NCBI GenBank assembly: GCA_049515915.1
Contig: JBEKTP010000001.1
Span: 6,855-70,854, forward strand
From: Patescibacteria group bacterium
Lineage (GTDB): Bacteria; Patescibacteriota; UBA1384; UBA12157; JAENIV01
DNA: 64,000 bases
Direction: 5' to 3'
Shown: positions 1-58,501 of the stretch, piece by piece
Layout: every line of letters starts with the position of its first letter
Position numbering within the stretch: the stretch's first letter is position 1
Notes under the pieces: generated by a model
What the model saw: the letters and a program-made list of their open reading frames with translations, nothing else
Told to the model about the DNA's origin: nothing
Database searches by the model: none
Made by a program: the position numbers and the translations under genes

Positions 1-225
1 CGTTAGTCACCAGATTGACAATAAAAGGTATCACGAGAAGTCCGGGGATATTTCCTTTTATCGCTTGATAAAAAACAAAGCCATAGGAAATGGCGATCAA
101 AATATACAAAAATGGCCAAACAATACCGAAGAGGTAAGGAGGCGGTGACAGCGGCGGCCGCTTAAAAGTTTTGTAGGTTTTCTGATAGTCCATATTTTTA
201 TTTTACTCCAAACTTTTGATGAATT

Positions 226-240
226 TGACGATTTTTAGTT
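226..240 (-). repeat. recurring intergenic motif AACTAAAAATCGYCRAR (instance 1)
   Basis: The plus strand reads tgacgatttttagtt. It overlaps the last codon and stop of the gene ending at 235. Confidence 0.5.
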
Positions 241-501
241 TATTTTTCTTAATTCTATTTTGACTTTTTCTAATATTTTTTTGCGATTCTCGGGTAAGTT
301 TTTGCCGGCGCGATTGATGTAAAAGGAAAGCATGCTCATGGCCGAATTATACGGCATCCGGGCTTTGCGCCGAGTGCTAGTTTTGGCCGATTTCATTAAG
401 GAACGGGCGATCCGTTTCGGATCATCAAAACTAAAAATTCCCGGCTCCAAATCCAAAGCATTACTTTCTTTTGTAACTTTCCCCGACCAATATTTTTTCA
501 T
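235..501 (-). CDS. DUF3175-like small protein
   Basis: 88 aa; the motif SAMSMLSFYINRAGKNL resembles the DUF3175 family. The start is 8 nt after the intergenic motif instance. Confidence 0.45.
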   Translation of the reverse strand: MKKYWSGKVTKESNALDLEPGIFSFDDPKRIARSLMKSAKTSTRRKARMPYNSAMSMLSFYINRAGKNLPENRKKILEKVKIELRKIN

Positions 502-507
502 AAAATA

Positions 508-527
508 TCTCGGCGATTTTTAGTTCG
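508..527 (-). repeat. recurring intergenic motif (instance 2)
   Basis: The plus strand reads ctcggcgatttttagttcg. It lies right after the protease stop and 8 nt before the ATG of the DUF3175-like gene. Confidence 0.5.
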
Positions 528-924
528 ATTTATATTCTTTAGGTATAATTTCGAATTGCTTTTTACCTACTTCAAAAGTTAATTTAACTTTATTAAAGAA
601 TCCTTCGTGACCGAGAATCCCGAATCCATACGGGTTAATATCTCGTGTGAATATTATCGGCACATCTTTAAAAAGCCAACCGCCAATTTCTAAATCTACT
701 TTGTGAATATAACCTCGACCGGTACCGCATATTCCACCGAAGGGGTATTCGTCGCCTTTTTCCAAATCGATATGAAGTTGTTCGGCAACCTCCGCATGGA
801 CAATTGCTATATCGGCACCAGTATCAATTAACGCTTGATAGGGAAAAGATTTGCCGCCGGATTTAAAAACAACCGGCAAAACCGGTTTGTAAAACATCTG
901 AAATTTTACATATGGAAATTTCAT
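520..924 (-). CDS. retropepsin-like (clan AA) aspartic protease
   Basis: 134 aa; the D-T-G-A active-site signature (LIDTGADIAIV) is typical of retroviral-type aspartyl proteases. It is translationally coupled to the upstream small ORF. Confidence 0.6.
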   Translation of the reverse strand: MKFPYVKFQMFYKPVLPVVFKSGGKSFPYQALIDTGADIAIVHAEVAEQLHIDLEKGDEYPFGGICGTGRGYIHKVDLEIGGWLFKDVPIIFTRDINPYGFGILGHEGFFNKVKLTFEVGKKQFEIIPKEYKSN

Positions 925-925
925 T

Positions 926-1126
926 TTAACAGCCGATGTAGGACAATATTTTTTCAGGAACTTTAAAAGTTAGAGGGACTTTTCTCTTACCATATTTCTT
1001 CTCAAACTTATTTAATGCCTGAGATAGTTTTTTGTCTGCAGAAAGAACCGTCGTCTGATTAGAATCCAAAACCACCCATTGCCCTTTATAATCTTGATAA
1101 ATTTTTGTCTGATCAATAACTTTCAT
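926..1126 (-). CDS. small hypothetical protein, partner of the retropepsin-like protease
   Basis: The likely true start is MKVIDQ at 1126, with a GGAGTG RBS and a TTGGAT-N15-TGnTATAAT promoter-like element upstream. It is about 66 aa and ends 1 nt before the protease start. Confidence 0.4.
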   Translation of the reverse strand: MKVIDQTKIYQDYKGQWVVLDSNQTTVLSADKKLSQALNKFEKKYGKRKVPLTFKVPEKILSYIGC

Positions 1127-1178
1127 TTTCACTCCAACATTATTATAACACAATTATTTGACATCCAAAATTTGGAGG

Positions 1179-1196
1179 TTCGACGATTTTTATTGC
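1179..1196 (-). repeat. recurring intergenic motif (instance 3)
   Basis: The plus strand reads ttcgacgatttttattgc. It is preceded on the minus strand by TTGACG-N14. Confidence 0.5.
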
Positions 1197-1702
1197 TATA
1201 TTATTTCGTCAATTAAACCTGCCTCGAGGGCTTCCCCTGCAGAAAAATATTTGTCTCCCAACGCAGCAGCCTCGATTTGTTTAACTTTCTCGCCACTTCT
1301 AGTAGCATAAATTTCAAAAAATTTTTCATCCAATTTTCTAAAAGTGTTTAATGCTTCCTGAGCATTATCAACATAACCGGCCACTTGAACACTACTTTTA
1401 TGGAGCATCATTTGACTATTAGTTGTCATCAACCTTTTTTCACAAGCTTGTAATATCAAAGACGCCCCAGAAAAAGCAATCCCTGATACAACTCCAACGG
1501 TTTTTCTTTTGCAATTTTTAAGTAAGTCGTAAAGCCCAAGAGCAGTATGAGTATCGCCGCCAGGCGAATTGATAAAAACAGTTACTTCATCATTTTCTTT
1601 AGTGGAATTCATGACCGCTGAAAATCTTGCCGTAAAGTTAACATAAAATTCTTTATTATCTATCGGCCCCGCTACCCAAATTGAATTTTTGTATTCAGTC
1701 AT
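1196..1702 (-). CDS. ClpP-like serine protease (S14 family), stand-alone
   Basis: 168 aa. The INSPGG motif and the GIAFSGASLIL segment (Ser nucleophile) are present, with His in MLHKSS. It is shorter than canonical ClpP. Confidence 0.6.
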   Translation of the reverse strand: MTEYKNSIWVAGPIDNKEFYVNFTARFSAVMNSTKENDEVTVFINSPGGDTHTALGLYDLLKNCKRKTVGVVSGIAFSGASLILQACEKRLMTTNSQMMLHKSSVQVAGYVDNAQEALNTFRKLDEKFFEIYATRSGEKVKQIEAAALGDKYFSAGEALEAGLIDEII

Positions 1703-1740
1703 CGAGTTATCCTTTTTAATTATAATTTTTCAACTTTGAG

Positions 1741-2421
1741 TTAAAAGGGTGTTTCATTGTCTGGACTTTTGTAGCCGTGAGTTATTTGGTCACCAACATG
1801 GCGGTATTTGCACCACTTGCAGTCTTCGGCTTCGGCTGGCAAGGGCCCAGATAAAAGATCATCAATAATTTTGGCGAACCTAAGAAAATGCGCCTCATCG
1901 CAAGGAATTTCCAGCCACTTGGGCGGAAAATCTATTTTAGCAATGCCATTCTTGAACTTCACCATGTCTGGATAAAAAATCAAAAGCCCAAGCTTGGTAA
2001 TTTTTAACGACTCGCCGCTACTCGGATTTTCGAGAGCAAATTTATAAGCGCCGAGCTGGGTTTTATACTTTTCGATTTTATCTTCGGCCGGCTGGCTGAT
2101 TTTTAAGTCAATTAAAGTGTGGGTACCATCGCTATTTTTGACCAATAAATCGTATTTTCCTTTGATGTAAACATTCGTTTCCGGCACCGGCATCGATTCG
2201 ACCCAGCCTTCTTGTTTGATAACTTCTCCCTCAGGTAGATCTTTGGAAATGGATTGTAAATTTCTCCCGACTAAATCTCCTTGGAGCCGACTGTTGATCG
2301 CCGCAAAAACTCCCGGCATCGGCATGCTAGGCTGATAGATTCCAGCTTTGACTTTTAAGCAATAGCAAAGCTTACATTCTTCGTAAAGGTAGGCGAAATC
2401 CGACGGTGACAGTTTATACAT
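1741..2421 (-). CDS. Cas4/RecB-like PD-(D/E)XK nuclease with Cys clusters
   Basis: 226 aa. The D..(I)DLK core and a QxxxY motif (TQLGAY) are present. Cys cluster CKLCYC lies at the N-terminus and C175 plus CKWC near the C-terminus, resembling the Fe-S staple of Cas4/AddB-type nucleases. Confidence 0.55.
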   Translation of the reverse strand: MYKLSPSDFAYLYEECKLCYCLKVKAGIYQPSMPMPGVFAAINSRLQGDLVGRNLQSISKDLPEGEVIKQEGWVESMPVPETNVYIKGKYDLLVKNSDGTHTLIDLKISQPAEDKIEKYKTQLGAYKFALENPSSGESLKITKLGLLIFYPDMVKFKNGIAKIDFPPKWLEIPCDEAHFLRFAKIIDDLLSGPLPAEAEDCKWCKYRHVGDQITHGYKSPDNETPF

Positions 2422-2430
2422 AAAGTTATC

Positions 2431-3342
2431 CTATCTATCCGGTGCGTTATCGTAACCTTGCTTGATAACCGACATAATATAATCGGCATTGGCGTTGTTG
2501 ACAAAATCGTGATACCACAGAGCGGTCGTGCCCCATTTGTAATTCGCCGGAACTTTCTTAAATATCTTTTTGGGATCGTCAATTTTTGTCGATCGAACAT
2601 ACACTCTAATTTTTTCTTTTGACAAGTTCAACGAGCAAAAATTATGATATTGAACTTTATAGCCAATATAATTTTTAACCGGTTTTGCCTGAATACGACT
2701 ATCCAGATTTATTATTCGCTCATGCATTTCCTCGAAAAGTGTTTTCACATTTCCACTGACGCGACTTAAGTGATCGGCAATCGTATATTCTTGAATCTCC
2801 CGACTAACTTCTTTGACTGGTTTAGTTTTTAAAATTGATGAAATCGAAATGTCCGATTTGGGAGTTTCAATTTGCTGAATTTGAAAAATATCATTTGACC
2901 AATCATACTTCCAAAGTTCAAAAGGAACACCTTTAAATCCCAAGGCGTTTGTTTGGTGAGTGTTAAAACTTCGAGCAATAAAAATTACCCGCGCTTGAGA
3001 CCAATCAATTTCTTTTTTTCCAATTTTACTTTCAAGAACAATTTGATAGTCACCTTTGTGGTTTAAGAGCCAGCTTAAGTAAGCCATGCCTTGATCAATG
3101 ACGCTTTCATGAGAATCTTTTTTATATTCTATAAGCACGGGGCCTTTTGTTTCTGAATCGTAGGCAATCGTATCAATCGAAAGTCCCTGACCTCCGAATT
3201 CAGTTCTTAGAAATTCTAAACCAAAAATCTCTTTGAGATTATTGTCAACTAATGTCTGCAACTCAAGTTCACTTTTAAAACTTTCTGACTTAAGGGCCTT
3301 GAACTTGTTATTTTCAATTTTAAATATCGGCATAATACCCAA
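2431..3342 (-). CDS. RecB-family PD-(D/E)XK nuclease domain protein with C-terminal unknown domain
   Basis: 303 aa. The N-terminal IDTIAYD...LIEYKK (D-E-K) is followed by a QGMAY (QxxxY) motif. The C-terminal half is uncharacterised. Confidence 0.5.
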   Translation of the reverse strand: MGIMPIFKIENNKFKALKSESFKSELELQTLVDNNLKEIFGLEFLRTEFGGQGLSIDTIAYDSETKGPVLIEYKKDSHESVIDQGMAYLSWLLNHKGDYQIVLESKIGKKEIDWSQARVIFIARSFNTHQTNALGFKGVPFELWKYDWSNDIFQIQQIETPKSDISISSILKTKPVKEVSREIQEYTIADHLSRVSGNVKTLFEEMHERIINLDSRIQAKPVKNYIGYKVQYHNFCSLNLSKEKIRVYVRSTKIDDPKKIFKKVPANYKWGTTALWYHDFVNNANADYIMSVIKQGYDNAPDR

Positions 3343-3385
3343 ATTATATTACTTTAGGACTTTTTAATCCAGAAACCTCTAGTTT

Positions 3386-3529
3386 TTATTTCTTCTTTGG
3401 TTTCTTTCTTCTTCCCGTTACTAAAGTTCGTGCATATCCTGGTTCTTTTTTCTCTGGCGTATGTGGATTTTGAAGGCCTTTCCCGGCTTTACTTAGCTGA
3501 GCTTTTGTTGGTTTTTTATTTTTTGCCAT
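3386..3529 (-). CDS. small very basic protein (47 aa)
   Basis: It is absent from the ORF track because it is under 60 aa. MAKNKKPTKAQLSKAGKGLQNPHTPEKKEPGYARTLVTGRRKKPKKK is preceded by an AAAGGTGGTGA RBS 7 nt upstream. Confidence 0.35.
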   Translation of the reverse strand: MAKNKKPTKAQLSKAGKGLQNPHTPEKKEPGYARTLVTGRRKKPKKK

Positions 3530-3618
3530 TATTACTCACCACCTTTCTCAATCACTTCTTCAACTTTTTTTTCGCTTCTGCTAAAAGCGCTTTGGATTTT
3601 TGGTGAGCAGTGTGGAAT

Positions 3619-3780
3619 TCAAAATTCCTCAATACCTTGGTACTCCAGTTTCTTTTTGTATTCCGGCATTGTGTCGCCATTTTCCAAGCAAACATCGAGC
3701 ATAAAGGTTTTTGGATTCGCCCAGCTTTCGACATCCACTCGCCCTTCACCGTATTTGCTTTTCACTAAAACACAAGTCAT
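3619..3780 (-). CDS. small hypothetical protein (53 aa)
   Basis: ATG at 3780 is preceded by a strong RBS (AAAAGGAGGTATAA). The track ORF 3552..3749 is in a different frame and is probably spurious. Confidence 0.4.
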   Translation of the reverse strand: MTCVLVKSKYGEGRVDVESWANPKTFMLDVCLENGDTMPEYKKKLEYQGIEEF

Positions 3781-3802
3781 TTATACCTCCTTTTAAAAAT
3801 AT

Positions 3803-3823
3803 TCAATCGACGATTTTTAGTTC
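3803..3823 (-). repeat. recurring intergenic motif (instance 4)
   Basis: The plus strand reads tcaatcgacgatttttagttc. It immediately follows the GNAT stop codon and lies about 20 nt upstream of the RBS of the 53-aa ORF. Confidence 0.5.
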
Positions 3824-4309
3824 TTATGTTAAATCTTTTTGCAATGTTACCAATTCTAATTCTTCATTCGTTTTTTTATTAATAACATTACTAATAACTT
3901 TTCTGCTTGTGATTTGGGTAAAACCGATTTTACGGTAAAATTTGCGTGTTCGTACATAAGGTTCATATTTAATTTTTTCAGATAATGTTTCAACTTTTAA
4001 TTTATTGATGTCTAATGTTATTAATATTTCTTCTAATTCGTGGACTAAAGCTTGACCAATGCCTTTTCTTTGATAGTCTGGTAAAACTCCCAACCAACTT
4101 ATAAACACTTCTCCCTCAAAAGAGCTATAGGTTAGAAAACCAACAATTTTTCCATCACATTCGGCTACATAGCCTTGATGAAAATTCAAATCATTCGGAA
4201 TTTCGAAAGTCAGCGCGTAATTATCAAACCAATCATGAAGATTTTTAGCAATCTTTATTATTTCCGGCCGATCTCGTTGTCCAAGTTTTCTAATTTTAAT
4301 ATTTTGCAT
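3824..4309 (-). CDS. GNAT family N-acetyltransferase
   Basis: 161 aa; the acetyl-CoA binding motif QRKGIGQALV is present. Confidence 0.8.
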   Translation of the reverse strand: MQNIKIRKLGQRDRPEIIKIAKNLHDWFDNYALTFEIPNDLNFHQGYVAECDGKIVGFLTYSSFEGEVFISWLGVLPDYQRKGIGQALVHELEEILITLDINKLKVETLSEKIKYEPYVRTRKFYRKIGFTQITSRKVISNVINKKTNEELELVTLQKDLT

Positions 4310-4321
4310 TTATTTAAATCC

Positions 4322-4339
4322 CTCGACGATTTTTGATTC
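4322..4339 (-). repeat. recurring intergenic motif (instance 5)
   Basis: The plus strand reads ctcgacgatttttgattc. It lies 12 nt upstream of the GNAT ATG, and the minus strand reads TCAAAAATCGTCGAGGGATTT. Confidence 0.5.
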
Positions 4340-4442
4340 ATATTAATTATACTCCAAAAACTATATAAACCTTTATTTTTTAAATAGATATAGTATAATA
4401 AACACGATTTGGATTCCAGCGTCAGAAGGAGGTGAACAAATC

Positions 4443-4763
4443 ATGGCCGATGAGAAGACCTACGCGCAAAGACTGGCTGAGACCCAAGCGATGTCCACCG
4501 AGGAGATTCACGAAGCCATCAGAGCGCGCGAGGCAGCTGGAAAACCCTGCGGCATACTCCACAGGGTATTAGCGGATCGTTCCGACGAGCGGGCCAAAAC
4601 GCTCGGTATCGATCCGCCCAGACCAGGAAGAAAGACGTATTCTGAACGGTACTCCGAGACCAGCTCCATGTCTACAAGCGAGATCAGAGCCAAGATCGCA
4701 GAACGCAGGGCTCAAGGCAAGGAGGTCGGTGTCCTCGAGCGCGTTCTTTCAGAACGTGAGTAG
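4443..4763 (+). CDS. high-GC hypothetical protein with internal tandem duplication
   Basis: 106 aa. Two ~45-aa repeats are present (MSTEEIHEAIRAREAAGKPCGILHRVLADR / MSTSEIRAKIAERRAQGKEVGVLERVLSER). GC is about 57% against about 35-40% flanks. It has a strong RBS (GAAGGAGGTGA) and its own terminator. Confidence 0.5.
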   Translation: MADEKTYAQRLAETQAMSTEEIHEAIRAREAAGKPCGILHRVLADRSDERAKTLGIDPPRPGRKTYSERYSETSSMSTSEIRAKIAERRAQGKEVGVLERVLSERE

Positions 4764-4790
4764 CCGCCCAGGCCAGTTGAACGATCGAAC

Positions 4791-4830
4791 GAAACCGCCT
4801 AGTAGCTTTAAAGCGAACGGCGGTTTTATT
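4791..4830. terminator. bidirectional rho-independent terminator
   Basis: Hairpin AAACCGCC...GGCGGTTT with a T-run on the plus strand and an A-run upstream. It sits between convergent genes (4443..4763 + and 4894..5421 -). Confidence 0.6.
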
Positions 4831-4853
4831 TAGATAGAATAACCCAGAATTTC

Positions 4854-4873
4854 CCTCGGTGATTTTTAGTTCG
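4854..4873 (-). repeat. recurring intergenic motif (instance 6)
   Basis: The plus strand reads cctcggtgatttttagttcg. The minus strand reads TTGACT-N14-TAAAAATCACCGAGGGAAATT, about 20 nt downstream of the last gene of the R-M operon. Confidence 0.5.
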
Positions 4874-4893: not shown

Positions 4894-5421
4894 CTAACTC
4901 TTTTTCTGGTTTTCTTTTGAATAGTACCAGAGAGCCTTGTCTAATGTTCGCAACGATACTTGATATTTTTCTGATAGTTTTCTTAATTCTTCAGTATATT
5001 TTTCCCAAAATCCAAAATCATAGCTTTTGGGCTGTTGCCATCCTAATGACCAAATAGCTCTGAAATCTAATATTGGATATTTATTTGGATATGCAAAATG
5101 TAAAATTACAGATGCAACCGGCCACGATGCACCTTTAATCAATAATAATGATCCAATGCTCGCTCTTTCATTTTTTGTGGATAATGCGAAGCTAGTTATT
5201 TCTCTAATAAACTCGTCGTCATTATTTTCATAATGTTTCTTGGGACGTTTTGACTTCCAAAGCCCGAGTATTACAAAATGCCTTTTATCCAAGTATTTAT
5301 TTGATAAAAACCAGTTTTTTAATTCCTTTTCATATTTTTCGTCGTCCGTTGCCCGAAAAATTGAATCGTATTTATTGCTATATTCTATTATTTTTTCTCT
5401 TGATAGTTTCATTTCTTTCAA
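4894..5421 (-). CDS. hypothetical protein (175 aa), last gene of the R-M operon
   Basis: Long ORF with a 6-nt gap to the upstream glycosylase-like gene and no recognisable motif. Confidence 0.45.
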   Translation of the reverse strand: MKEMKLSREKIIEYSNKYDSIFRATDDEKYEKELKNWFLSNKYLDKRHFVILGLWKSKRPKKHYENNDDEFIREITSFALSTKNERASIGSLLLIKGASWPVASVILHFAYPNKYPILDFRAIWSLGWQQPKSYDFGFWEKYTEELRKLSEKYQVSLRTLDKALWYYSKENQKKS

Positions 5422-5427
5422 TAATTT

Positions 5428-6204
5428 TTATTTCTCGCTTATTATCTTCGGGCACAATGAATTCAAATAACACTTTTGACAATCTGGATTTTTTGGTCGG
5501 CACCAGTTGTGCCCGATTTCCCAACAAGACAAATCAAAAATTCCAGGATAATCCGGATGAAGTTCGCGGGCAGCATATACCAATTCTTCAGAATTTTCTT
5601 TTTTTGTAAAACCAATCCGCTTAAATACCCGTCTCAAATGAACATCTGGCGAGACATCAATACAAATTTTATCTTTTACTTCAATCTTGAAATCTCTAAC
5701 AAGGATATTAGCGGCCATTGTAGAAATTTTAATCCCTACACCCCTAAATTCTTGAAACCTTTTAACTAGCAAGGCACTACTTGGTTTTCCCAACCAAATA
5801 TTTGCCGCATTGCTTTTATATTTATTTTTTATGTCTTGCAAAGCATAAAAAAAATTCTCAGCCATATCAGTATTGAATCTATGAAGTTTCTTATTATTAA
5901 AAAGTTCAATATATTGTTCTTTGCTTAATTTTAATAATTCAGTTATTTCAAAAGTATTTAACTCTTGAGAGATTTTGTAGGGTATAACCCAAGCTCTTTC
6001 GGCGGGGATTTGCCGATCCATAACACAGGCAAGCACAAATGCGTGTGGATATTTATCCAGATTATTTAATAATTTTTCGGCTTGGTTATTATTAGTAGTA
6101 AAGTTGACAATTTCTTTGGGTCTATCCAAAAGAGCCTGACCACGTTTTATCAGTAATTCGCTAATTTCCGCTTTTTTAAATTCATTATCCATCCAATTCT
6201 CCAT
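5428..6204 (-). CDS. endonuclease III-like HhH-GPD DNA glycosylase with [4Fe-4S] cluster loop
   Basis: 258 aa. An HhH motif with Lys (FRGVGIKISTMAANIL) is followed by IDVSPDVHLRRVFKRIGF, resembling Nth GVGRKTA...VDTHIFRV. The C-terminal C-x6-C-x2-C-x5-C (CRPKNPDCQKCYLNSLC) matches the EndoIII/MutY Fe-S loop. Confidence 0.65.
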   Translation of the reverse strand: MENWMDNEFKKAEISELLIKRGQALLDRPKEIVNFTTNNNQAEKLLNNLDKYPHAFVLACVMDRQIPAERAWVIPYKISQELNTFEITELLKLSKEQYIELFNNKKLHRFNTDMAENFFYALQDIKNKYKSNAANIWLGKPSSALLVKRFQEFRGVGIKISTMAANILVRDFKIEVKDKICIDVSPDVHLRRVFKRIGFTKKENSEELVYAARELHPDYPGIFDLSCWEIGHNWCRPKNPDCQKCYLNSLCPKIISEK

Positions 6205-6240
6205 TCATTGATTTGTGCAAAACCGAATCGAAAAGTTCTT

Positions 6241-7380
6241 TTATAATTCCCCTTCAAATGCGCTAGATAGGATGGATTGTTTGAGAGAGGAAAGATCGGC
6301 GAGCTGGTTTTGCTGAAGGGTTTTGAGTTTTTCGACTTTTTCTCGCAAATTATTGAGATAAGCAACAATCTTTTTTTGTTCCGAAATCGACGGAAGCGGG
6401 ATTCTTTCTTTTTTTAAAATTTTATAATGTCTGCTGTATCCCAAGCTTTCAAGATCTAAATCTTGAAGAGCATAATAAAAATATTTTGGATTGAATTCAT
6501 CTTTCGGATCTATGATTTTGGTGCCATCTGCCCCGATGGCGAAAACAAAATCAATATATTTAAAAATTCGAGTATGGTCTCCAAAAATAATTACCGGCAA
6601 TTCCCCTTGATACGTGGTATATTTATCATTTGTGTAACCGCCAATCAAAGACGCACCTTGATCAACAATTGGATAATTTCCTTCTCTATAGTAATTTGTC
6701 TTAGCAATTCCTTTTATTTTTTTTGGTAACTTTTTAATACATTCGGAAAATTCTATCATTTTATTTTTTTTACTGATATTTTGTAAAACTTTTTTAAGAG
6801 ACGAGCAGAAAATCTGATTTGTTCCTACGAGAGATTTTTGGCGGAGGACGATGGCTTTGTCAATTTTTTCAAAATATTTCTCAATCTTCGCCACGATTTG
6901 TTTTTGGATTTGGAGAGGCGGGATAGGGATTTCGAGATTAGAATATTGTTGGGCATTTATATTGGGTTGTGTAACCTGATTTAGTGTCCTTGAAATAAAG
7001 TTTTTATAATAGGGGCTTAATGAATATAGAAAGAAAAATTTGGGAAGCACTTTATTTTTATCCAGCTTAAACCGAATTAAATAAGATGCGAACAATGCGG
7101 GTTTTGGCAAATCTGTTTTATTAACTAAATACATTCTGCCAACTGAGCCGCTTCGGGCAATTAAAATATCATCATTTTCCAAAGCATATTTTTTGAAAGT
7201 TACTTCATTAGTATCAATAAACTTAGGATTAGCAAGATTTAACATTCCTGAATCATTTATGTCCGTTATCCGAAGATATAAATATGGTTTTTCTTGTAAA
7301 CTTGCTTTAGCCGTAAAACCGTATTGTGGTTTTGTCTTTAATAATTCTCCTATTTTTTTTATCGGCCAGTTAGTTTTCAT
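6241..7380 (-). CDS. hsdS: Type I restriction-modification specificity subunit HsdS
   Basis: 379 aa with two target-recognition-domain halves and conserved LPLPPLQIQKQIVAKIE / IPLPSISEQKKIVAYL repeats. It overlaps the upstream ORF by 4 nt. Confidence 0.85.
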   Translation of the reverse strand: MKTNWPIKKIGELLKTKPQYGFTAKASLQEKPYLYLRITDINDSGMLNLANPKFIDTNEVTFKKYALENDDILIARSGSVGRMYLVNKTDLPKPALFASYLIRFKLDKNKVLPKFFFLYSLSPYYKNFISRTLNQVTQPNINAQQYSNLEIPIPPLQIQKQIVAKIEKYFEKIDKAIVLRQKSLVGTNQIFCSSLKKVLQNISKKNKMIEFSECIKKLPKKIKGIAKTNYYREGNYPIVDQGASLIGGYTNDKYTTYQGELPVIIFGDHTRIFKYIDFVFAIGADGTKIIDPKDEFNPKYFYYALQDLDLESLGYSRHYKILKKERIPLPSISEQKKIVAYLNNLREKVEKLKTLQQNQLADLSSLKQSILSSAFEGEL

Positions 7381-7976
7381 TTTGATTTCCTCATCAGACC
7401 ATTAATGATTTTCCGATCGAAATAAAAAAGGAGTAATCCCAATCTTTGTAAACAGTCAATGAAAACAAAATAAGTAAATTGCCCCATCGGCGTTCGCTGT
7501 AAATCCTGTAAAATCTTTCTTTTTCTCTCATCTATGTGAAAAAACTCAGCGTTAAACCATAAATCCACAATTTCTTCTGTTTTTAAATTTTGATTATTCA
7601 CCTTAAGTCTCATCCCACCGAGAGGGAAATTATCTTTTTTCTCTAATATTTTTCCCCAATTTTCGCGACACCCAACAAGTTCTTTGATGATTTCTTCATT
7701 TTTACAATTTTGAAAAACAAAGTTACAAACTGAATAAAAATTAATCGATGAATTTTCTGCAATAAAATGCCGGAAATCTAAAATAAAGGCTTTTGTCGAT
7801 TGCTCATCCGGACCGGCCGATTTCACAGTTAGACCTTCATTTTCGCTATAGTTTAATTGCAAAGAAACATTTTTATAAAAATTCCTGTTGGAATGAAGTT
7901 TCTGAACTTTATCGTGAAAATCACTTAAAATCCTATCATATTTTTCGTTTACAATATCCTTATTATTAGTTTTCAT
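7377..7976 (-). CDS. hypothetical protein embedded in Type I R-M operon (199 aa)
   Basis: ATGA-type overlaps on both sides (with hsdS and with the 208-aa ORF). No known motif was recognised. Confidence 0.5.
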   Translation of the reverse strand: MKTNNKDIVNEKYDRILSDFHDKVQKLHSNRNFYKNVSLQLNYSENEGLTVKSAGPDEQSTKAFILDFRHFIAENSSINFYSVCNFVFQNCKNEEIIKELVGCRENWGKILEKKDNFPLGGMRLKVNNQNLKTEEIVDLWFNAEFFHIDERKRKILQDLQRTPMGQFTYFVFIDCLQRLGLLLFYFDRKIINGLMRKSK

Positions 7977-8599
7977 TTAACTAATCCAATAAACTTTAAA
8001 AATCTTATTCCTTTTTCAGTAACAATATAGCTGTCATCGATTTTTTGAATCATTATATTTTGTAATAGAACATTAAAAATCGATTCGCGTTCTAATTTAT
8101 CTGGGATTCTGGGCTCATAAATAATGTTGAACAGGTCTTTTGTGAATGACCCAAGATCGTGAGCCCACTTTAAAACAATTTTTGTGTTTGGCACAAAGAA
8201 TAGATTAAGATATAAAAATTCATACAATTCAGACCGTTGAACAAGATAATTGATGAAATTCTCTTTTTCCTGAATTTTTTTTTCCTTTTCTTCAGATTCA
8301 CCTGATATTTTCAAAAATTCTTGATCTAATAAGTTAATTTGTTCTTCTGTCAAAGTAATTCCTTTTTGTTCCAGTGAATTTTCAATCTTTCTGTCAATGT
8401 TTTCCGGTGGCCGCTGAGTCGCTTCCACAGGACCAACTCTAAGAGAGTAAATATTTTTCAGAAATTCTCGGATAGAATCACTGAATTTTAATATAAAAAT
8501 TAGTCCTAAAACGAAAATAGCAACAGGCCATGACAAGACAGCTTTTAAATATTCTGGGATGACTTTAATAATTTCTAATGTCATAAATTTCTTACTCAA
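7973..8599 (-). CDS. hypothetical membrane-anchored protein embedded in Type I R-M operon (208 aa)
   Basis: An N-terminal TM helix (WPVAIFVLGLIFILKF) is followed by a charged helical region. It is abutted to the neighbouring ORFs. Confidence 0.5.
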   Translation of the reverse strand: MSKKFMTLEIIKVIPEYLKAVLSWPVAIFVLGLIFILKFSDSIREFLKNIYSLRVGPVEATQRPPENIDRKIENSLEQKGITLTEEQINLLDQEFLKISGESEEKEKKIQEKENFINYLVQRSELYEFLYLNLFFVPNTKIVLKWAHDLGSFTKDLFNIIYEPRIPDKLERESIFNVLLQNIMIQKIDDSYIVTEKGIRFLKFIGLVK

Positions 8600-9511
8600 T
8601 TATTTTTTGGACGATAAATATTCCTCATGTTTATCAGCTATTTCGAAAAGCCATTGCACAATTTTATCAAGATAGCTTTTTATTTCTTTGGCCTGGCCTT
8701 CGCCAAATGCGATTATTGACAGATATTCTTCTAAGGTTTGTAAAACTAGTACGGATATTGTTTCAATCAGCTGTGGCCTGGGAGTGGCATATTCAAATTT
8801 TGGTAGCCGAAAACCCATCTTATCCTCGTCTCTTTCTAAGTGATCAAAGTCAAGCTCGTGCCAACTACCATGTACATAGTGAGAACTAATTTTGAATACA
8901 AGTTCATATATAGGGTAAAGACCGACATCTTCTGCCTTTCCAGATATTTCTAAGTGTTTCTTTTCGAGTCCCCATTTTGTTTTTTCGAGTTCTTTTTCCT
9001 CAAGATTATCGAGATGTGATCGTTTGTAAGTTTTATTTATACTTTCCAACATCCTTTTTTCAATGGGTAACTTATTATTCCGTTTTTGAATATTTCGAAG
9101 AACGATATTTTCTAGTTGTTTTTCGTAAGCTAACGAAGCCCTTTTATATTTTTTATAAATGTCCGTATCAAAGTATTTTATCAAATAATTTAAATTTATT
9201 ATTGTTTCAGCAAGTGACCTTAAAACAATAAAAGCAATTTCTGTCCTGCGCTCTACGATTAAAAAGGTAAAAGTGTCGTAAAGTTTGTAAATCCTGACGA
9301 GATGCCCTCGAAGAATATCTAATTTTTCTGGTTCAATTTCTTTTTGGGATACAATTCCCGCAATTAAAATGACTGCTTTACGCACATCATTTGCAACAGC
9401 CACAAGATCGACCATAAAATCATTGTTACTATTCCTTTCTTTAGTAATCAATGGCAATTTTAATTCTGGTAATTCTAGCTGGACAAATTCATCTTCCTTT
9501 GGCTCTTTCAT
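8600..9511 (-). CDS. hypothetical alpha-helical protein embedded in Type I R-M operon (303 aa)
   Basis: It overlaps the hsdM stop by 4 nt. An His-rich segment SSHYVHGSWHELDFDH is present. It is possibly a DUF5677-like family member, but that is unverified. Confidence 0.5.
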   Translation of the reverse strand: MKEPKEDEFVQLELPELKLPLITKERNSNNDFMVDLVAVANDVRKAVILIAGIVSQKEIEPEKLDILRGHLVRIYKLYDTFTFLIVERRTEIAFIVLRSLAETIINLNYLIKYFDTDIYKKYKRASLAYEKQLENIVLRNIQKRNNKLPIEKRMLESINKTYKRSHLDNLEEKELEKTKWGLEKKHLEISGKAEDVGLYPIYELVFKISSHYVHGSWHELDFDHLERDEDKMGFRLPKFEYATPRPQLIETISVLVLQTLEEYLSIIAFGEGQAKEIKSYLDKIVQWLFEIADKHEEYLSSKK

Positions 9512-10932
9512 AAATTTAGATTATTTAAAATTTTTTTAATTTCATCTTCTTTTTCTATTATATTTTTAATCAATTCCTCCGGTTTCTTAAGATCTAAATT
9601 CTCTTTCCCATTCGGATTCTTGGCAGAGAGGTCATAATTTTTGGAAATAATTCCTTCATTTTTAACCGCCCAAGAATTTTCAGATTTCGTTTTCTTCTGC
9701 CATTTTTCAAGAGCATCTGCCGTATGTTCGTCTAAAATTGGGTTTTTCTTGGTGTATTTGATACCGGCAGGCGGGTTCAGTTCGTAATACCAAATTTCTT
9801 CGGTTGGTTTGCCTTTTTCAAAAAATAAAAGATTGGTTTTGGGACCTTGGCCGGATGAAGAAACATTGGCAAAAACGCCGGGCGGAAGGCTGATGATGGT
9901 ATGTAAATTACAATTTTCTAAAAGCTCTTTTTTAATATTGACATAGGTTTTTCCAGTTCTAAAAAGCACGCCTTCAGGCAAAACAATTCCGGCTCGGCCG
10001 CCGGCTTTGAGCTTTTTCATCAAATAATACAAGGCTAAAAGTTCGGTATCCGAGGATTTAATCGGAAAACCTTGCAAAACTTCTTTGTCTTCAACGCCAC
10101 CAAAGGGCGGATTAGTCAAAATAATATGGTAGCGTTCGCTTTCCGGAATAGAAGTTAAATCCTCCGCAAAAGTATTAGTTTTGGTAATGTGGGGCGATTG
10201 GAGATTGTGTAAAAGCAGGTTCATAATGCCCAAAAGATAGGGCAGGGATTTGGCTTCATTGCCATAAAAAGTCTCATTTTGGAGAACGGAAAATTGTTTA
10301 GCCGTTAATTTAGGATTTTTTTCTTGGAGGTATTTGAAACTTTCAGCTAAAAATCCACCGGAGCCAGCAAAAGGATCAAAGATTTTCTCGCCGATTTGGG
10401 GATTAATAATTTTTACCATCAGCCGAATAATTGGTCGCGGAGTATAAAATTCACCGGAAGCGCCACCCTCTTGGCCCATCTTTAAAAGCAGTTCTTCGTA
10501 GACTTGGGAAATAATGTGAGTGTCCTCGGGCTTAGAAAAATCAAGTTCATCTAAAAGATTGACGACATCTTTGAAATTGAATGGCGAGTGCATATAGTTG
10601 CGCAGATCATCAAAAAGTGAGGCAATAATGTTTTTTAATGGGGTACCGCGAAGATTTCTTAAATACGGAAACAATTTAATATTTACAAACTCTGATTGTT
10701 CTTTTGCTTCCAGCTTGCTCCAAGCAGACCATTGATATTTTTTTTCGATAACTGGCTGGTATCTTTCCCCAAAAACTTGCGCCCCCAGTCGGCTTTTATG
10801 CTCAATCTGTTCAAAAAGTTTTAAAAATAACATCCAAGAAACTTGTTCGATGTACTGCAAAAGATAGAGTTTGTCACGGCGCATAATATCGCAGGCTGAC
10901 CAGATTTTATTTGAGAGGGTTTGTCTATCCAT
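9508..10932 (-). CDS. hsdM: Type I restriction-modification DNA methyltransferase subunit HsdM (N6-adenine)
   Basis: 474 aa with an HsdM N-terminal domain, the catalytic NPPFG motif (LTNPPFGG) and an AdoMet motif (FDPFAGSGGFL). Confidence 0.9.
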   Translation of the reverse strand: MDRQTLSNKIWSACDIMRRDKLYLLQYIEQVSWMLFLKLFEQIEHKSRLGAQVFGERYQPVIEKKYQWSAWSKLEAKEQSEFVNIKLFPYLRNLRGTPLKNIIASLFDDLRNYMHSPFNFKDVVNLLDELDFSKPEDTHIISQVYEELLLKMGQEGGASGEFYTPRPIIRLMVKIINPQIGEKIFDPFAGSGGFLAESFKYLQEKNPKLTAKQFSVLQNETFYGNEAKSLPYLLGIMNLLLHNLQSPHITKTNTFAEDLTSIPESERYHIILTNPPFGGVEDKEVLQGFPIKSSDTELLALYYLMKKLKAGGRAGIVLPEGVLFRTGKTYVNIKKELLENCNLHTIISLPPGVFANVSSSGQGPKTNLLFFEKGKPTEEIWYYELNPPAGIKYTKKNPILDEHTADALEKWQKKTKSENSWAVKNEGIISKNYDLSAKNPNGKENLDLKKPEELIKNIIEKEDEIKKILNNLNL

Positions 10933-13443
10933 TTAGACTCTTTCCTTTTGATAAAGATATTTTTGTAATTTTTGAATCGCAGACCTGGCTTGTTGGGGCC
11001 CGCCGAGGGAGACAATAATTTTTTCAATCCCGATTTCTTGAAATTTTGGCAAATTGAAAACTTCTTTTCGGGATATGTCTTCGATGCCGCCAATGCGGTA
11101 TTGATCAAGTAGGGCCAAAATAATCGGTTGAGCTTCTCTGCCAAGCGATGATAAAAATTCCTGTTTTCTAATTTCGATTGCCTGGGCCCGTTCATCGCGA
11201 GAAATAATCGGCGCGTCAAAAGCAACATGAGCTAAGACATCAAAAAAGTCAGCGTCTTCGCGATCAATCAGCTTAGCTAGGGCTTCAGGCGAAACGCTTT
11301 GATCTTTTAAATTCGAAAGAAAAGTTTTTCTCTTTTCTTCATCAATCCAGATTTTTTGCAAGTCATCCAAAGTTAGAGCCAGTTTGGCGACTTCTTCTTT
11401 GGAATATTCTTTGTATTCCGCACTTTTTAAGTGATTGCCGCCGACATCAAAAGTAAGATCGGCAGTGGAATAAATGTAGACGTCAACGCCGCCAAGAGTG
11501 ATTTTGTGAGGAGTTTTTCTTTCTTTTTTAAGCTCATAGATTTCTGGTTGGGGTTCAGGGGTGGGAGTGATTCGAAGTTCTCGGCGAACAAAACCGTTGG
11601 CGGAAATTTGCAGGGTAACTTTAATTCTGGGAAGTTTGTCAAAGGCAAAAATTCCGAGTTCATTGGTGGTTGTTTGTAAGTGCTCGTGCGCTTTGGTCAT
11701 CACGGTTACTTTGGCGCCAATAATTGGCGTTTCGGTTTTGGAAATGACAATTTTTCCTTCTAAAAAGCTATCATTAGGACCAATTTCTTCGTCTTCCGCT
11801 TCCTCTTTTTCCTCGGGTGTTAAAACAGAAAATAGTCTGGTGGCATTGACATAATCAATGATGCGAAAATAATATTTACTAGTGGCGGCATCAATGCGAC
11901 TACCACGACCAATAATTTGGTTGAAAAAAACCACTGACGAGATTGGCCGAAGTAAAACAATATTTTTTACCGAAGGCATATCAATGCCCGTGGATAAAAG
12001 ATCAACGGTGGTGGCGATAACCGGTGTTTTCTTTTCCGAATCTTTAAAAGCTTGGGCCAATTCGTGAGCGCCGCCTTCTTCGGAGACAATCGTGACCGCG
12101 TAGTTGGCCGCGCCTTCGGAGGAAAAATGATTTTGTAATTCTTTAGTCATGGCCCGGGCGTGGTCATTATTAACACAAAAAACAATCGTTTTTTCGTAGG
12201 TGCCAAATTTTTTAAGAAGACCGGCGAGATGTTCTGCGATTTTTTTCGTTAGGTTAGGAATGGCGACTCTACGTTCAAACTCACCGGCAGTGTAAAAGGC
12301 TTTGATTTCGTCATCAAATTCTTCGGGATAAAAAACTTCGGCTCCCTGCAATCTTTGTTCTTCAACATCCACGCCGCCTTCTTTATGAAGGTTGGTCAAA
12401 ATTCTCTGGATCATATAATTCGCGAGAAAGCCGTCTTTGATGCCTTGGCGAAGATTATATTCATAAACAGGATTGCCGAAATATTTATAAGTATTAATAT
12501 TATCATCACGCTTTGGAGTAGCGGTCATGCCGAAGTGAATAGCGCCGGAAAAATGTTTTAAAATGTCATACCAAAGATTCCAGCCCGAGCGATGACACTC
12601 ATCAATGATAACCATGTCGAAAAAGTTTTTGGGATAAGTTTCAAAAAGCCGCTTACCATTCTTTTGAGAATAAAGAGTTTGGTAGGTAGTAAAATAAATA
12701 TCTCGCACTTGAGGCGCTTTGCCTTCAATTATCTTTTCGCGGGCGTCTTTAAGAGGACCAAACTCCAATTCATAAGCCTGATCGCGGATGAGCCGGCGGT
12801 CGGCAACAAAAAGAACACGTTTGATATACCCGGATTGGTAGAGTTTCCAGACGGTTTGAAAAGCGACTTTTGTTTTTCCCGAACCTGTCGCCATAGAGAC
12901 CAAAATCCTCTTTTGCTTTTTGACGATGGCTTCGATAACCTTTTGAATAGCTAAAAGTTGATAATAACGAGGATTTTTGCCAAAGGGGGTAATATAGAGC
13001 GGGTATTCAAGCGGATTTTTCTCAAGTTTTTTGGCCAAAACTTTACTGTAACTTTTTAAACGGGCGTAAAGTTCTTCGGGTTTCGGGAATTGTTTGATTG
13101 TTTTTTGAGTATTAGTGATAAAATCAAACTCTTCGATGGCATGGCCATTAGTAGAATAAGCAAAAGAAAGTTCAAGTTTCTCCGCGTAGTCTTTGGCTTG
13201 TTGCATGCCATCCATTGAAGTGTGGTTTTCGTCTTTGGCTTCGACAACCGCGATCGGAAAAGCGTTATTGTGAAATAAAAGATAATCGGCAATCTTATTT
13301 TTTTCTCTTTCAACCCGATCGCCTAAAATATTAACTTTGCCGGCGGTGATTTGAAATTCCCTTTGAGTGTCTTCGTCTTTCCAGCCGGAATCTTTTAATT
13401 GAGGATCAATGAGTTTTGATCTTGTATCGGATTCGTTGAGCAT
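10933..13443 (-). CDS. hsdR: Type I restriction enzyme R subunit HsdR with inserted beta-sandwich domain
   Basis: 836 aa. SF2 helicase motifs are present (MATGSGKT Walker A, DECHR). The C-terminal EcoEI_R_C-like domain is present. An inserted transthyretin/carboxypeptidase-regulatory-like segment (~residues 560-640) is seen. Confidence 0.9.
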   Translation of the reverse strand: MLNESDTRSKLIDPQLKDSGWKDEDTQREFQITAGKVNILGDRVEREKNKIADYLLFHNNAFPIAVVEAKDENHTSMDGMQQAKDYAEKLELSFAYSTNGHAIEEFDFITNTQKTIKQFPKPEELYARLKSYSKVLAKKLEKNPLEYPLYITPFGKNPRYYQLLAIQKVIEAIVKKQKRILVSMATGSGKTKVAFQTVWKLYQSGYIKRVLFVADRRLIRDQAYELEFGPLKDAREKIIEGKAPQVRDIYFTTYQTLYSQKNGKRLFETYPKNFFDMVIIDECHRSGWNLWYDILKHFSGAIHFGMTATPKRDDNINTYKYFGNPVYEYNLRQGIKDGFLANYMIQRILTNLHKEGGVDVEEQRLQGAEVFYPEEFDDEIKAFYTAGEFERRVAIPNLTKKIAEHLAGLLKKFGTYEKTIVFCVNNDHARAMTKELQNHFSSEGAANYAVTIVSEEGGAHELAQAFKDSEKKTPVIATTVDLLSTGIDMPSVKNIVLLRPISSVVFFNQIIGRGSRIDAATSKYYFRIIDYVNATRLFSVLTPEEKEEAEDEEIGPNDSFLEGKIVISKTETPIIGAKVTVMTKAHEHLQTTTNELGIFAFDKLPRIKVTLQISANGFVRRELRITPTPEPQPEIYELKKERKTPHKITLGGVDVYIYSTADLTFDVGGNHLKSAEYKEYSKEEVAKLALTLDDLQKIWIDEEKRKTFLSNLKDQSVSPEALAKLIDREDADFFDVLAHVAFDAPIISRDERAQAIEIRKQEFLSSLGREAQPIILALLDQYRIGGIEDISRKEVFNLPKFQEIGIEKIIVSLGGPQQARSAIQKLQKYLYQKERV

Positions 13444-26772: not shown

Positions 26773-27519
26773 ATGACAGCGTTGCCATGCCGTAACCGAA
26801 CTTCAAGCGAGGTCAGAACAGGTATGTTGGAAGCCGACTGCCTCTTCGTCCCACTGGGTCTACCGACGATCAGCACGCCGGCCGTCATGGCGGTAGCAGT
26901 CAAGACGCTTTTTGCCCATGACTTCATCCCGCGCGTCGATTTGGCCCTCAAGACCGAGGTCCTCCAGGCGGCGATCAAAGCCTCTAGACGCACAGACACT
27001 CAGACCGCTCGCCCCGTCATCGCGGCTTTCAACAACATCAACTTCGCCCACAACCAGCTCGCGGTCTGTTTGGGCTTCGACATCATCGAATACGAGGGGG
27101 CGGAGCCGGACGAGCTCGCACCTTTCGCCGCGCTCTGCGCCGAAGCCGGCGTCTACGGACTGGTTCACTTCAATGATCCTGGCGTCCTCGAACTCATGTT
27201 GGCGTCAATCGAGGATCCCAACCTCCTCGCCGCTCACCTCGACTATAACGAATGCCGCCTGAAGGACTATGCCGTCGCCTATCGCCGCGTCGGCCTCGAG
27301 CCTAAAAGCCAAATCGCCATCGTCAGCTGCCCGATTACCTGGGGGACCAGTTGGCAGCGGATTATTCGCCACCAATGCGGCTTTGAGCTGATCCCGGGAC
27401 TCGTCTTGACCGATGTCTTCGCCAAGATCAACCCCAACGACACCGAAGCGATCAAGCACGCCATCGCCAATGCGCGTGAACACTTTACGCCCTTCACTGG
27501 GCACGAACCCGTCGGATGA
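26773..27519 (+). CDS. high-GC hypothetical protein (248 aa), likely horizontally acquired
   Basis: It is the longest ORF in a ~60% GC island (26.75-27.56 kb) inside a ~40% GC genome. It has a perfect promoter and RBS upstream and a terminator downstream. No family was recognised. Confidence 0.5.
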   Translation: MTALPCRNRTSSEVRTGMLEADCLFVPLGLPTISTPAVMAVAVKTLFAHDFIPRVDLALKTEVLQAAIKASRRTDTQTARPVIAAFNNINFAHNQLAVCLGFDIIEYEGAEPDELAPFAALCAEAGVYGLVHFNDPGVLELMLASIEDPNLLAAHLDYNECRLKDYAVAYRRVGLEPKSQIAIVSCPITWGTSWQRIIRHQCGFELIPGLVLTDVFAKINPNDTEAIKHAIANAREHFTPFTGHEPVG

Positions 27520-47115: not shown

Positions 47116-47144
47116 TATCTTATGTCACCGTGATACCTAAGTCA
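47116..47144 (-). promoter_or_regulatory. putative mraZ/dcw promoter
   Basis: On the minus strand, -35 TTGACT (47144..47139) and -10 TAAGAT (47121..47116) are separated by a 17-nt spacer. Confidence 0.4.
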
Positions 47145-47184
47145 ACATTTTGTCAAGACCTTCAAGCTCAAAAACTCCCCAAAA

Positions 47185-49728: not shown

Positions 49729-49768
49729 ATTTTCTCCTAATTTCAATATATCAGAAACGGCGAGGATT

Positions 49769-55441: not shown

Positions 55442-55549
55442 ATAAGTCGCAAATAATTTACGACGTTCTGAACCCAGCTCGCGTACCCTTTTAATTGGCG
55501 AACAGCCAAACCCTTGGGACGTACTTCCGCCCCAGGATAGGATGAGCCG

Positions 55550-56372: not shown

Positions 56373-56404
<32 letters not shown>

Positions 56405-56425
56405 ATTCGCTACCATAGAACGGTT

Positions 56426-57860: not shown

Positions 57861-57891
<31 letters not shown>

Positions 57892-58451: not shown

Positions 58452-58501
<50 letters not shown>

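Follow-up and report, generated by a model that had tools for sequence, protein, structure and literature searches.

A GC-rich gene in a putative defence island of a Patescibacteria bacterium encodes a conserved helical-repeat protein of an undescribed, apparently mobile family

How does a gene with a guanine-plus-cytosine content (GC) of about 0.573 come to lie among genes that average 0.35, and what might its product do there? The question is raised by a short open reading frame (ORF) in the left part of a 64,000-nucleotide (nt) stretch of DNA from a Patescibacteria group bacterium (contig JBEKTP010000001.1 of assembly GCA_049515915.1), the whole of which is referred to here as the window. 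An earlier note on this DNA had described the ORF as a foreign-looking gene for an internally duplicated protein, furnished with strong expression signals and plausibly acquired from an actinobacterial host or one of its phages. Its placing of the organism in the Candidate Phyla Radiation (CPR) was correct, the identical protein having been deposited as a hypothetical protein of 'Patescibacteria group bacterium'; JGI 3300038423 is one of the samples in which the organism is present. The best explanation of the whole, to which we would give a probability of roughly 0.7, is that the ORF is a real gene for a helical-repeat protein, horizontally mobile and residing in a defence island; that its product serves as a binding module is a far less certain part of it.

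4443..4763, forward strand: coding sequence, ATG start, 106 amino acids plus stop; member of an unannotated family of small helical-repeat proteins.

Comparison with its relatives establishes that 4443-4763 is a genuine protein gene under purifying selection. When 5.8 billion proteins were searched by word index, 56 homologues came up, none of them carrying a Pfam domain; among 1.84 billion cluster representatives, an exhaustive search by profile retrieved 41 clusters at E <= 0.001, a few of which are repetitive false positives; three long repetitive proteins of low complexity (P0057, P0075 and P0078) were rejected as members on these grounds. Homologues share about 50-80% amino-acid identity, yet their third codon positions differ, and similarity at the DNA level starts and stops with the coding sequence, the flanks not being alignable. 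When the last repeat unit of 21 loci was compared codon by codon, the median proportions of synonymous (pS) and non-synonymous (pN) differences over all pairs were 0.81 and 0.27, respectively; pN relative to the gene in the window ranged from 0.14 to 0.36, and the median ratio of non-synonymous to synonymous rates (dN/dS) was 0.17 over the 70 pairs with a computable dS. This pattern implies strong purifying selection on the sense frame and excludes the antisense ORFs as the gene.

The family so defined is very small and undescribed, and it occurs almost exclusively in metagenome assemblies, several of them labelled groundwater. Its conserved unit reads [ADRSDxRAxxLxIDPPRPGR]-KTYxERYxETSxMSTxEIxAxIAEREAxGKECGVLYRVL, and nine positions (D57, P59, G62, R63, K64, T65, R88, G96 and R100) are invariant in the 54 aligned members. 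Members carry one unit or two, and the most distant ones retain the 45-residue core only. Pfam models gave nothing above threshold with any of the 54 members, nor did NCBIfam, PHROGs and PADLOC with the 106-residue protein; a profile search of the family against the sequences of the PDB found no match, and a full-text literature search on the motif PRPGRKTY found no paper.

The compositional contrast that first singled out the gene is real, and it was rightly described. GC is 0.59, 0.50 and about 0.62-0.63 at the first, second and third codon positions (GC1, GC2 and GC3), against a mean GC of 0.35 and GC3 of 0.32 in the surrounding island genes and of 0.43 and 0.46 in the remaining window; the '35-40%' given for the neighbourhood in the earlier note was correct in being low and, if anything, too high as a figure. 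In windows of 50 nt, GC climbs from 0.14-0.32 at 4341-4430 to 0.5-0.64 over 4421-4810 and returns to 0.32-0.38 beyond, so that the high-GC block takes in the ribosome-binding site and the 3' hairpin described below and leaves out a TATAAT box at 4394-4399.

How much of this contrast lies in the protein and how much in the choice of codons can be read from 5,000 re-codings of the 106-residue protein with the codon usage of either island genes or core genes. Island usage predicts a GC of 0.49 and a GC3 of 0.38 +/- 0.044, core usage 0.53 and 0.49 +/- 0.044; the observed values of about 0.575 and 0.62 place the gene's GC3 5.5 and 3.1 standard deviations (z), respectively, above expectation. A protein rich in Arg, Ala, Glu, Gly and Pro accounts for about 63-70% of the GC excess over neighbouring genes, and the remaining third or so of the contrast is codon choice unlike that of the host. 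GAG encodes 11 of the 15 Glu residues (17-27% in host genes) and ATC four of the six Ile, in line with the preference for G/C-ending codons that had been noted. Codon usage that departs from the host's after control for amino-acid composition, as is expected of a horizontally acquired gene, is thus present here, and the description of the gene as foreign-looking survives that control. The note had also named the outcome that would speak against transfer, namely a composition reflecting protein constraint. Constraint does explain a part, every relative being richer in GC than its flanks (gene 0.49-0.64, contig 0.36-0.58), but not the signal at the level of codons.

The relatives add evidence of a second kind. 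Where enough flanking genes were available to compute host-usage z-scores for a locus, GC3 lay above the host prediction in this window (+3.4) and at loci L020 (+4.9), L012 (+3.7), L024 (+3.2), L004 (+2.7) and L016 (+2.5), and below it at L023 (-6.5), L026 (-6.2) and L003 (-2.4). Over 15 non-redundant contexts the GC3 of the gene is uncorrelated with that of its host (r = 0.12, p = 0.67). The gene never equilibrates with its hosts in GC3, and therefore appears to keep moving.

The distribution and the neighbourhoods of the family point the same way. Among 185,579 species-representative genomes it is found on one scaffold, belonging to a metagenome-assembled genome (MAG) of Candidatus Brocadia; it also occurs on one IMG/VR contig and on 19 JGI metagenome contigs. 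An all-against-all comparison of neighbours, small ORFs included, revealed no partner gene shared over the contexts, the matches found being antisense frames of the family gene itself or the product of related genomes. Transposases of the rve type adjoin the family gene at two unrelated loci and are 36% identical to each other; no inverted repeats enclose transposase and family gene at L027 or L010, and the idea of transposon cargo was dropped. At L008 (Ga0210018_1000293, 5946-8482) the neighbour is a large serine recombinase of 518 residues, which lies between 100-nt inverted repeats (97% complementary), while the family gene lies between 104-nt inverted repeats (93%) and several shorter inverted repeats are interleaved with these. 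A 715-bp block that bears the gene is 93% identical between L008, on a contig with a GC of 0.50, and L012/L020, with a GC of 0.40-0.43, the other kilobases being unrelated or inverted; at L012/L020 the segments next to the block are inverted or deleted, both loci keep a remnant of the recombinase, and at L020 the block stands beside four tRNA-like repeats. The arrangement of these three loci resembles a multi-site inversion (shufflon-like) system or an integration module.

Genes of biological conflict are also met beside the family gene. A STALD/SLOG protein is encoded divergently next to it at L003 (5676-6539) and L035 (68-946), the two being 63% identical, and IMG/VR classes one of the two contigs as viral. 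No other neighbour with a defence-type domain recurs, and the recurrence of this one may just reflect related genomes. Other relatives lie near patatin/CHAT or nSTAND/TCAD9 genes. TrmB neighbours at two loci are only 22% identical and were treated as coincidence. A patchy distribution, unrelated contexts and an association with mobility genes, all of them expected of a horizontally acquired gene, are therefore found together in this family, and from composition and comparative context we infer that 4443-4763 is a horizontally mobile accessory gene.

The product is a repeat protein, organised as follows.

4455..4580, forward strand: repeat unit 1, residues 5-46, KTYAQRLAETQAMSTEEIHEAIRAREAAGKPCGILHRVLADR; AlphaFold2 (AF2) helices at 7-15, 19-31 and 37-54.
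4581..4631, forward strand: linker, residues 47-63, SDERAKTLGIDPPRPGR; end of the long helix and the family's invariant Pro-rich basic loop, where the predicted local distance difference test score (pLDDT) dips to 66-72.
4632..4757, forward strand: repeat unit 2, residues 64-105, KTYSERYSETSSMSTSEIRAKIAERRAQGKEVGVLERVLSER; AF2 helices at 66-74, 78-90 and 96-105; the best-conserved part of the family.

The two units are identical at 22 of 42 positions in a gap-free alignment (BLASTP E = 8e-9), with a Smith-Waterman score of 110 compared with 22.9 +/- 4.4 for shuffled sequences (z = 19.7). The earlier note had recognised the internal duplication but took it for two 45-residue repeats placed head to tail; the core is 42 residues long and the period 59, because a linker of 17 residues parts the copies. 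Identity between the units at third codon positions is only 31%, and the duplication must therefore be ancient. AF2 predicts six helices, three per repeat, and no beta-strand for the 106-residue protein (15-sequence alignment; pLDDT 82, predicted TM-score 0.70), the third helix of unit 1 doubling as the first helix of unit 2. For the one-unit relative P0031 (31-sequence alignment) it predicts a four-helix domain with a pLDDT of 93-97, made up of the 'ADRSD' helix, the IDPPRPGRK loop and the three core helices; a short N-terminal helix stands ahead of this domain, as does a linker of about 20 residues whose pLDDT is below 50. Foldseek searches against the PDB and the BFVD viral models returned nothing below E = 2.6 and generic helical matches only; the protein does not fit the 34-residue helix-turn-helix repeat or the profile models of TPR, nor the Pfam models or folds of the SAP, HeH and Rho_N motifs. 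Taken together, the product is a conserved, folded, all-helical cytoplasmic repeat protein with an invariant Pro-rich basic loop, IDPPRPGRK.

Within the family, 54 of 83 proteins have an N-terminal extension of at least 11 residues, and in 22 of 54 the helical hydrophobic moment reaches at least 0.6, on the amphipathic pattern M-F-L-K-R-F-x-Q-W-L-x-G; one relative, P0084, is fused to a multi-pass hydrophobic N-terminal region. The protein of the window lacks such a segment: it starts MADEKTY, and its sole Cys, C36, lies within unit 1. It is near-neutral (isoelectric point 7.9), with 19 acidic and 20 basic residues, among them 15 Glu and 14 Arg, and has 13 Ala besides Gly and Pro.

The signals around the gene suggest a self-contained expression unit, with its own -10 box, a very strong Shine-Dalgarno (SD) sequence and its own hairpin terminator.

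4394..4399, forward strand: -10-like hexamer, a perfect TATAAT, 44 nt 5' of the ATG, in the AT-rich, host-like part of the intergenic region; read from the sequence.
4425..4435, forward strand: SD sequence GAAGGAGGTGA, AGGAGG core at 4427-4432, 10 nt before the ATG, inside the GC-rich block.
4791..4834, forward strand: hairpin and U-tract, 9-bp stem GAAACCGCC/GGCGGUUUU, between two convergent transcription units.

A scan for full sigma-70 promoters found no -35/-10 pair above threshold at the gene, and the TATAAT at 4394-4399 would be its promoter by inference only. The ribosome-binding site deserves the epithet 'strong' that it had been given: among the 34 ATG-start genes checked in the window, its 7-nt match to AGGAGGT is the longest, the others having 5 nt at most and many none. 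The dedicated terminator is plausible rather than proven. The GC-rich stem (4791-4799/4819-4827) is followed by UUUUAUUU, with a folding energy of -18.9 kcal/mol (z = -1.8), and may well act as an intrinsic terminator; owing to the length of its loop it escaped a simple terminator scanner. The transcript is predicted to have its 5' end near 4406 and its 3' end near 4834.

The setting of the gene is the left 13.5 kb of the window, which is compositionally distinct (mean gene GC3 0.32, as against 0.46 for the remaining window) and reads as a low-GC defence island. The gene sits within it at the junction between a GNAT acetyltransferase gene and the end of a type I restriction-modification (R-M)/glycosylase operon. 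As had been stated, it is convergent to that operon, which runs on the minus strand in the order hsdR, hsdM, DUF5677, two unknown ORFs, hsdS and two HhH-GPD-like ORFs, ending at 4894.

10933-13443, minus strand: hsdR of the type I R-M operon.
9508-10932, minus strand: hsdM.
8600-9511, minus strand: DUF5677 gene.
6241-7380, minus strand: hsdS.

The two ORFs at the end of the operon (4894-6204, minus strand; 258 and 175 residues) appear related to HhH-GPD glycosylases (TIGR03252, E = 9e-16, for the 258-residue ORF) and may form a glycosylase add-on to the R-M system; the 175-residue family is widespread, with 207 homologues, one of which is labelled HhH-GPD in one source. On the other side, the 161-residue GNAT gene adjoins the family gene divergently at a distance of 133 nt. 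Further left lies a candidate defence gene of the PDC-S18/DUF5655 type (2431-3342, minus strand; PADLOC E = 4e-84), which adjoins a PD-(D/E)XK nuclease and a ClpP-like protease, and a Replic_Relax-like gene is found just upstream of the window on the longer contig.

A direct repeat of 21 nt brackets the whole cassette (P about 0.003 against a Markov null for two flanks).

4319..4339, forward strand: left copy of the 21-nt intergenic motif, TCCCTCGACGATTTTTGATTC; its minus-strand reading contains the SD region of the GNAT gene.
4852..4872, forward strand: right copy, TCCCTCGGTGATTTTTAGTTC, identical to the left copy at 17 of 21 positions; 22 nt past the stop of the last R-M operon gene, with no minus-strand gene after it.
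225-241, 510-526, 1180-1196, 3807-3823, 4323-4339 and 4856-4872: copies of the motif TCGRYGATTTTTRRTTC; coding strand of the island genes, GAAYYAAAAATCRYCGA.

Six copies of TCGRYGATTTTTRRTTC, where 0.65 would be expected by chance, are confined to 225-4872 and all stand at junctions of minus-strand genes; they may be repeats that mark the joints between cassettes, or else a leader or translation-initiation element common to several genes. If 533 bp were taken out, the GNAT gene would come to lie directly behind the last operon gene, the reconstructed junction consisting of the stop of the 175-residue gene, 21 nt, GAACTAAAAATCRYCGAGGGATTTAAATAA and the ATG of the GNAT gene. Such an arrangement agrees with an insertion, or a recombination event, at the junction of an operon.

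What the protein does can be suggested with low confidence from its architecture and neighbourhood: tentatively, it is a binding module of the mobilome with a role in conflict. Binding is preferred to catalysis because the protein is small and helical, bears no catalytic signature and varies in the number of its units. The helical units would form a small rigid module that acts stoichiometrically on a conserved cellular partner, protein being likelier than nucleic acid. Action at the inner face of the membrane is suggested by the amphipathic N-terminal segment, the disordered linker and the P0084 fusion, and the amphipathic helix, together with a disordered linker rich in Ser, Thr and Pro, may anchor the module there in many relatives. 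The frequency of recombinases and conflict systems beside the family gene suggests a part in the conflict between mobile elements, phages and hosts, for example in exclusion or the modulation of defence, rather than in housekeeping.

A bolder and, as a whole, improbable extension of this reading would make the family an unrecognised class of small effectors that mobile elements distribute among the ultra-small bacteria of groundwater and their neighbours. The rigid module, usually clamped to the inner membrane by an amphipathic helix, would bind a universally conserved host machine (of division, envelope or translation, for example) through the IDPPRPGRKTY loop and thereby exclude competing phages and elements or tune the host; in the lineage of L008, expression or position would be switched by serine-recombinase inversion at the 100-nt inverted repeats.

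Known systems offer partial parallels. Helical-hairpin binding modules of the TPR-like and HPt-like kinds are among the closest. The 'moron'-type accessory genes of prophages and genomic islands, which are autonomous ORFan cassettes, resemble the gene in being single and small, with their own -10 box, strong SD sequence and terminator between host or island transcription units, out of step in composition, patchy in distribution and often beside recombinases or transposases; they differ in that no phage structural genes surround 4443-4763, only one relative lies on a contig called viral, and the insertion here is a reconstruction. The superinfection-exclusion lipoprotein Ltp of Streptococcus phage TP-J34 (PF07553) likewise has tandem helical domains of about 45-48 residues, is encoded by a mobile element and is associated with the membrane. 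Its repeat gave the only near-threshold Pfam match (E = 0.009-0.013; 16.1 bits against a cut-off of 23.2), over 15 residues in two of 54 members; the gathering threshold over the 48-residue domain is not reached, there is no signal peptide with a lipobox cysteine, and membership was rejected. The 106-residue protein also has no N-terminal extension that could hold a lipoprotein signal, and any membrane contact of the family would be on the cytoplasmic side. MinD, MinE and FtsA are peripheral division proteins with amphipathic membrane-targeting helices. The M-F-L-K-R-F-x-x-W-L-x-G start of many relatives, with its high hydrophobic moment and a disordered linker next to it, is similar to these, with the difference that the relatives' membrane binding is predicted from sequence and that the protein of the window has no such segment.

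Several observations weigh against the reading of a mobile binding module engaged in conflict. Much of the GC signal is amino-acid composition. The 21-nt repeat is one of six island-wide copies and had to be given up as a target-site duplication or unique scar. No empty site was found, all 23 contigs read with the identical protein having the same neighbours; a search for a syntenic sister genome through the flanking 175-residue gene yielded none, its closest homologues being non-syntenic and no more than 73% identical, so that it is composition, and not direct observation, that speaks for the insertion. The proposed function is drawn from architecture and neighbourhood, with no homology and no conserved partner gene, and the inference of a tether may not apply to a copy that has no N-terminal amphipathic helix. 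Strong conservation across hosts, at 60-80% identity, is unusual for anti-defence proteins, which evolve fast. Finally, about half of the contexts are of a housekeeping or stress nature, including a Suf operon, EncFtn/thioredoxin reductase (with glutaredoxin) and hemerythrin.

The alternative that survives best concerns the ligand. The protein could be a small nucleic-acid-binding protein, be it nucleoid-associated, a silencer or a regulator, in which the PRPGRKTY loop and the helices contact DNA or RNA and the number of repeats sets avidity. The invariant basic loop G62-R63-K64-T65 together with the conserved R69, R88 and R100 would suit such a role, as would the modular copy number of one or two units and a very strong conservation over diverse hosts, which fits a universal ligand; one or two members also give weak, sub-threshold matches to the DNA-binding models of GapR and MerR. 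We nevertheless think it unlikely, given that no helix-turn-helix, SAP, HeH, ribbon-helix-helix (RHH) or AT-hook family is detected in the 54 members even at E <= 5, that the protein is near-neutral, and that the amphipathic N-terminal helix and the membrane-fused relative point to the membrane and not to the nucleoid.

Decidedly unlikely is the view that the gene is a native one, passed on by vertical descent, which owes its GC contrast to the amino-acid composition of a constrained protein. It would explain why every homologue is GC-richer than its flanks and why composition alone yields the larger part of the excess, with a predicted GC of 0.49-0.53 in this genome, and it agrees with the fixation of the gene in 23 of the 23 contigs read for this organism. 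It does not account for a GC3 that exceeds the expectation from host codons by 3.1-5.5 standard deviations, for relatives that deviate from their hosts in both directions with GC3 untracked, for unrelated contexts rich in mobile-element genes, or for a family so patchy that it appears in one of 185,579 species representatives.

The neighbouring acetyltransferase suggests another possibility, namely that the protein is an antitoxin or regulator of a GNAT-type toxin-antitoxin pair like TacAT, AtaRT or KacAT. The GNAT gene is directly adjoining, if divergent, and a GNAT is the next annotated downstream gene at L023 and L026. The three GNATs, however, are only 25-29% identical and not orthologous, L023 and L026 represent one lineage, and most contexts of the family are without a GNAT; moreover, the two genes are divergent and not co-transcribed, and the protein has no RHH/DUF1778 signature and no predicted beta-strand. 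These properties set it apart from the TacAT, AtaRT and KacAT pairs and make the idea very unlikely.

Where a mobile gene of this kind came from is a separate matter. The codon-usage part of the contrast may have been carried over from a donor of moderate or higher GC, and the earlier note had looked for it among high-GC Actinobacteria that may serve the CPR cell as host, or among their phages. Actinobacteria are indeed the hosts of some Saccharibacteria, and a GC3 of 0.62 with a preference for GAG, AAG and ATC is compatible with a higher-GC donor. The comparisons lend this origin no support. At E <= 1, tblastn with the 106-residue protein found no match in 50,697 phage genomes, a collection that presumably includes many actinophages, or in 72,556 plasmids, and the 185,579 species representatives offer the Brocadia scaffold as the single match and nothing from an actinobacterial genome. 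All other relatives are on environmental metagenome contigs with a GC of 0.36-0.58, several labelled groundwater, and a gene GC of 0.57 is well under the 65-72% typical of Actinobacteria. An actinobacterial origin is accordingly regarded as highly improbable, and the donor was probably neither an actinobacterium nor a sequenced phage or plasmid. P0007, which with 73% identity comes closest, is likewise encoded by a GC-rich gene (0.55-0.60) on a contig of 0.38-0.45, and the third codon positions of that gene differ from those of the gene in the window; in comparison with all known relatives synonymous change has reached saturation (pS about 0.8), and therefore no recent donor is identifiable.

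That the GC-rich block is no protein gene at all, and is instead a structured RNA or belongs to a gene of the opposite strand, has next to nothing to recommend it. Several relatives contain long antisense ORFs, as GC-rich sequence can be expected to do, and the mRNA is slightly more stable in folding than shuffled sequences (z = -1.8). A search of 4443-4763 against Rfam gave no match, and it is the sense frame that is conserved, with synonymous change saturated, non-synonymous change low and amino-acid identity kept across homologues whose third codon positions differ. Two further candidates were set aside. A precursor of ribosomally synthesised and post-translationally modified or other multi-core peptides does not agree with a sequence conserved over its whole length and a fold predicted at a pLDDT above 90; there is no maturation enzyme in the neighbourhood within the window, and only 3 of about 16 contexts of the family have a radical SAM or C39 peptidase gene as neighbour. 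An integron gene cassette does not agree with the gene's own -10 box and SD sequence or with a downstream hairpin that resembles a simple terminator; a Pfam scan of the ORFs at 1-13.5 kb of the window detected no integrase, no attC model being applied.

Three other features of the window are worth recording. Between mraZ (46611-47042) and a minus-strand gene at 48409-49776 lies about 1 kb (47120-48100) with a GC of 0.56-0.61, in which no frame holds a convincing ORF and no match to Pfam, or to Rfam at E <= 0.1, was obtained. Its minus strand folds at -427 kcal/mol, compared with -350 +/- 8.8 for shuffles (z = -8.8; plus strand z = -6.3), with many long perfect hairpins. The stretch may represent a non-coding RNA of large size and elaborate structure, or else an array of hairpins lying upstream of the division/cell-wall cluster. 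A second compositionally odd ORF, of 248 residues, is found at 26773-27519 on the forward strand (GC 0.59; GC3 0.74, against 0.46 for the genome); it has no Pfam, NCBIfam or Rfam match, and its C-terminal 190 or so residues look like real protein. The 23S rRNA gene (55378-59103, minus strand) is interrupted by a group I intron at 55564-55878, and two low-GC ORFs within the 23S coordinates (54880-55407 and 56505-56996) are putative homing endonucleases by the look of their translations.

As a phenomenon, a mobile orphan accessory gene in a defence island is ordinary; what sets this one apart is a protein family that is undescribed and structurally unmatched. The analysis also carries a methodological caution, in that the 'foreign GC' of a small gene may come mostly from the amino-acid composition of its product, and it is the codon-level test, together with the comparison over many hosts, that carries the inference of transfer. 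The story of an episymbiont that took the gene from its actinobacterial host is corrected in the process, being without support. What emerges is a newly defined family, compact, highly conserved and unannotated, with an invariant linear motif and a confidently predicted fold that matches nothing solved. These properties, in a family that is mobile among unculturable bacteria, would make it an inexpensive subject for expression, the screening of partners and the determination of its structure.

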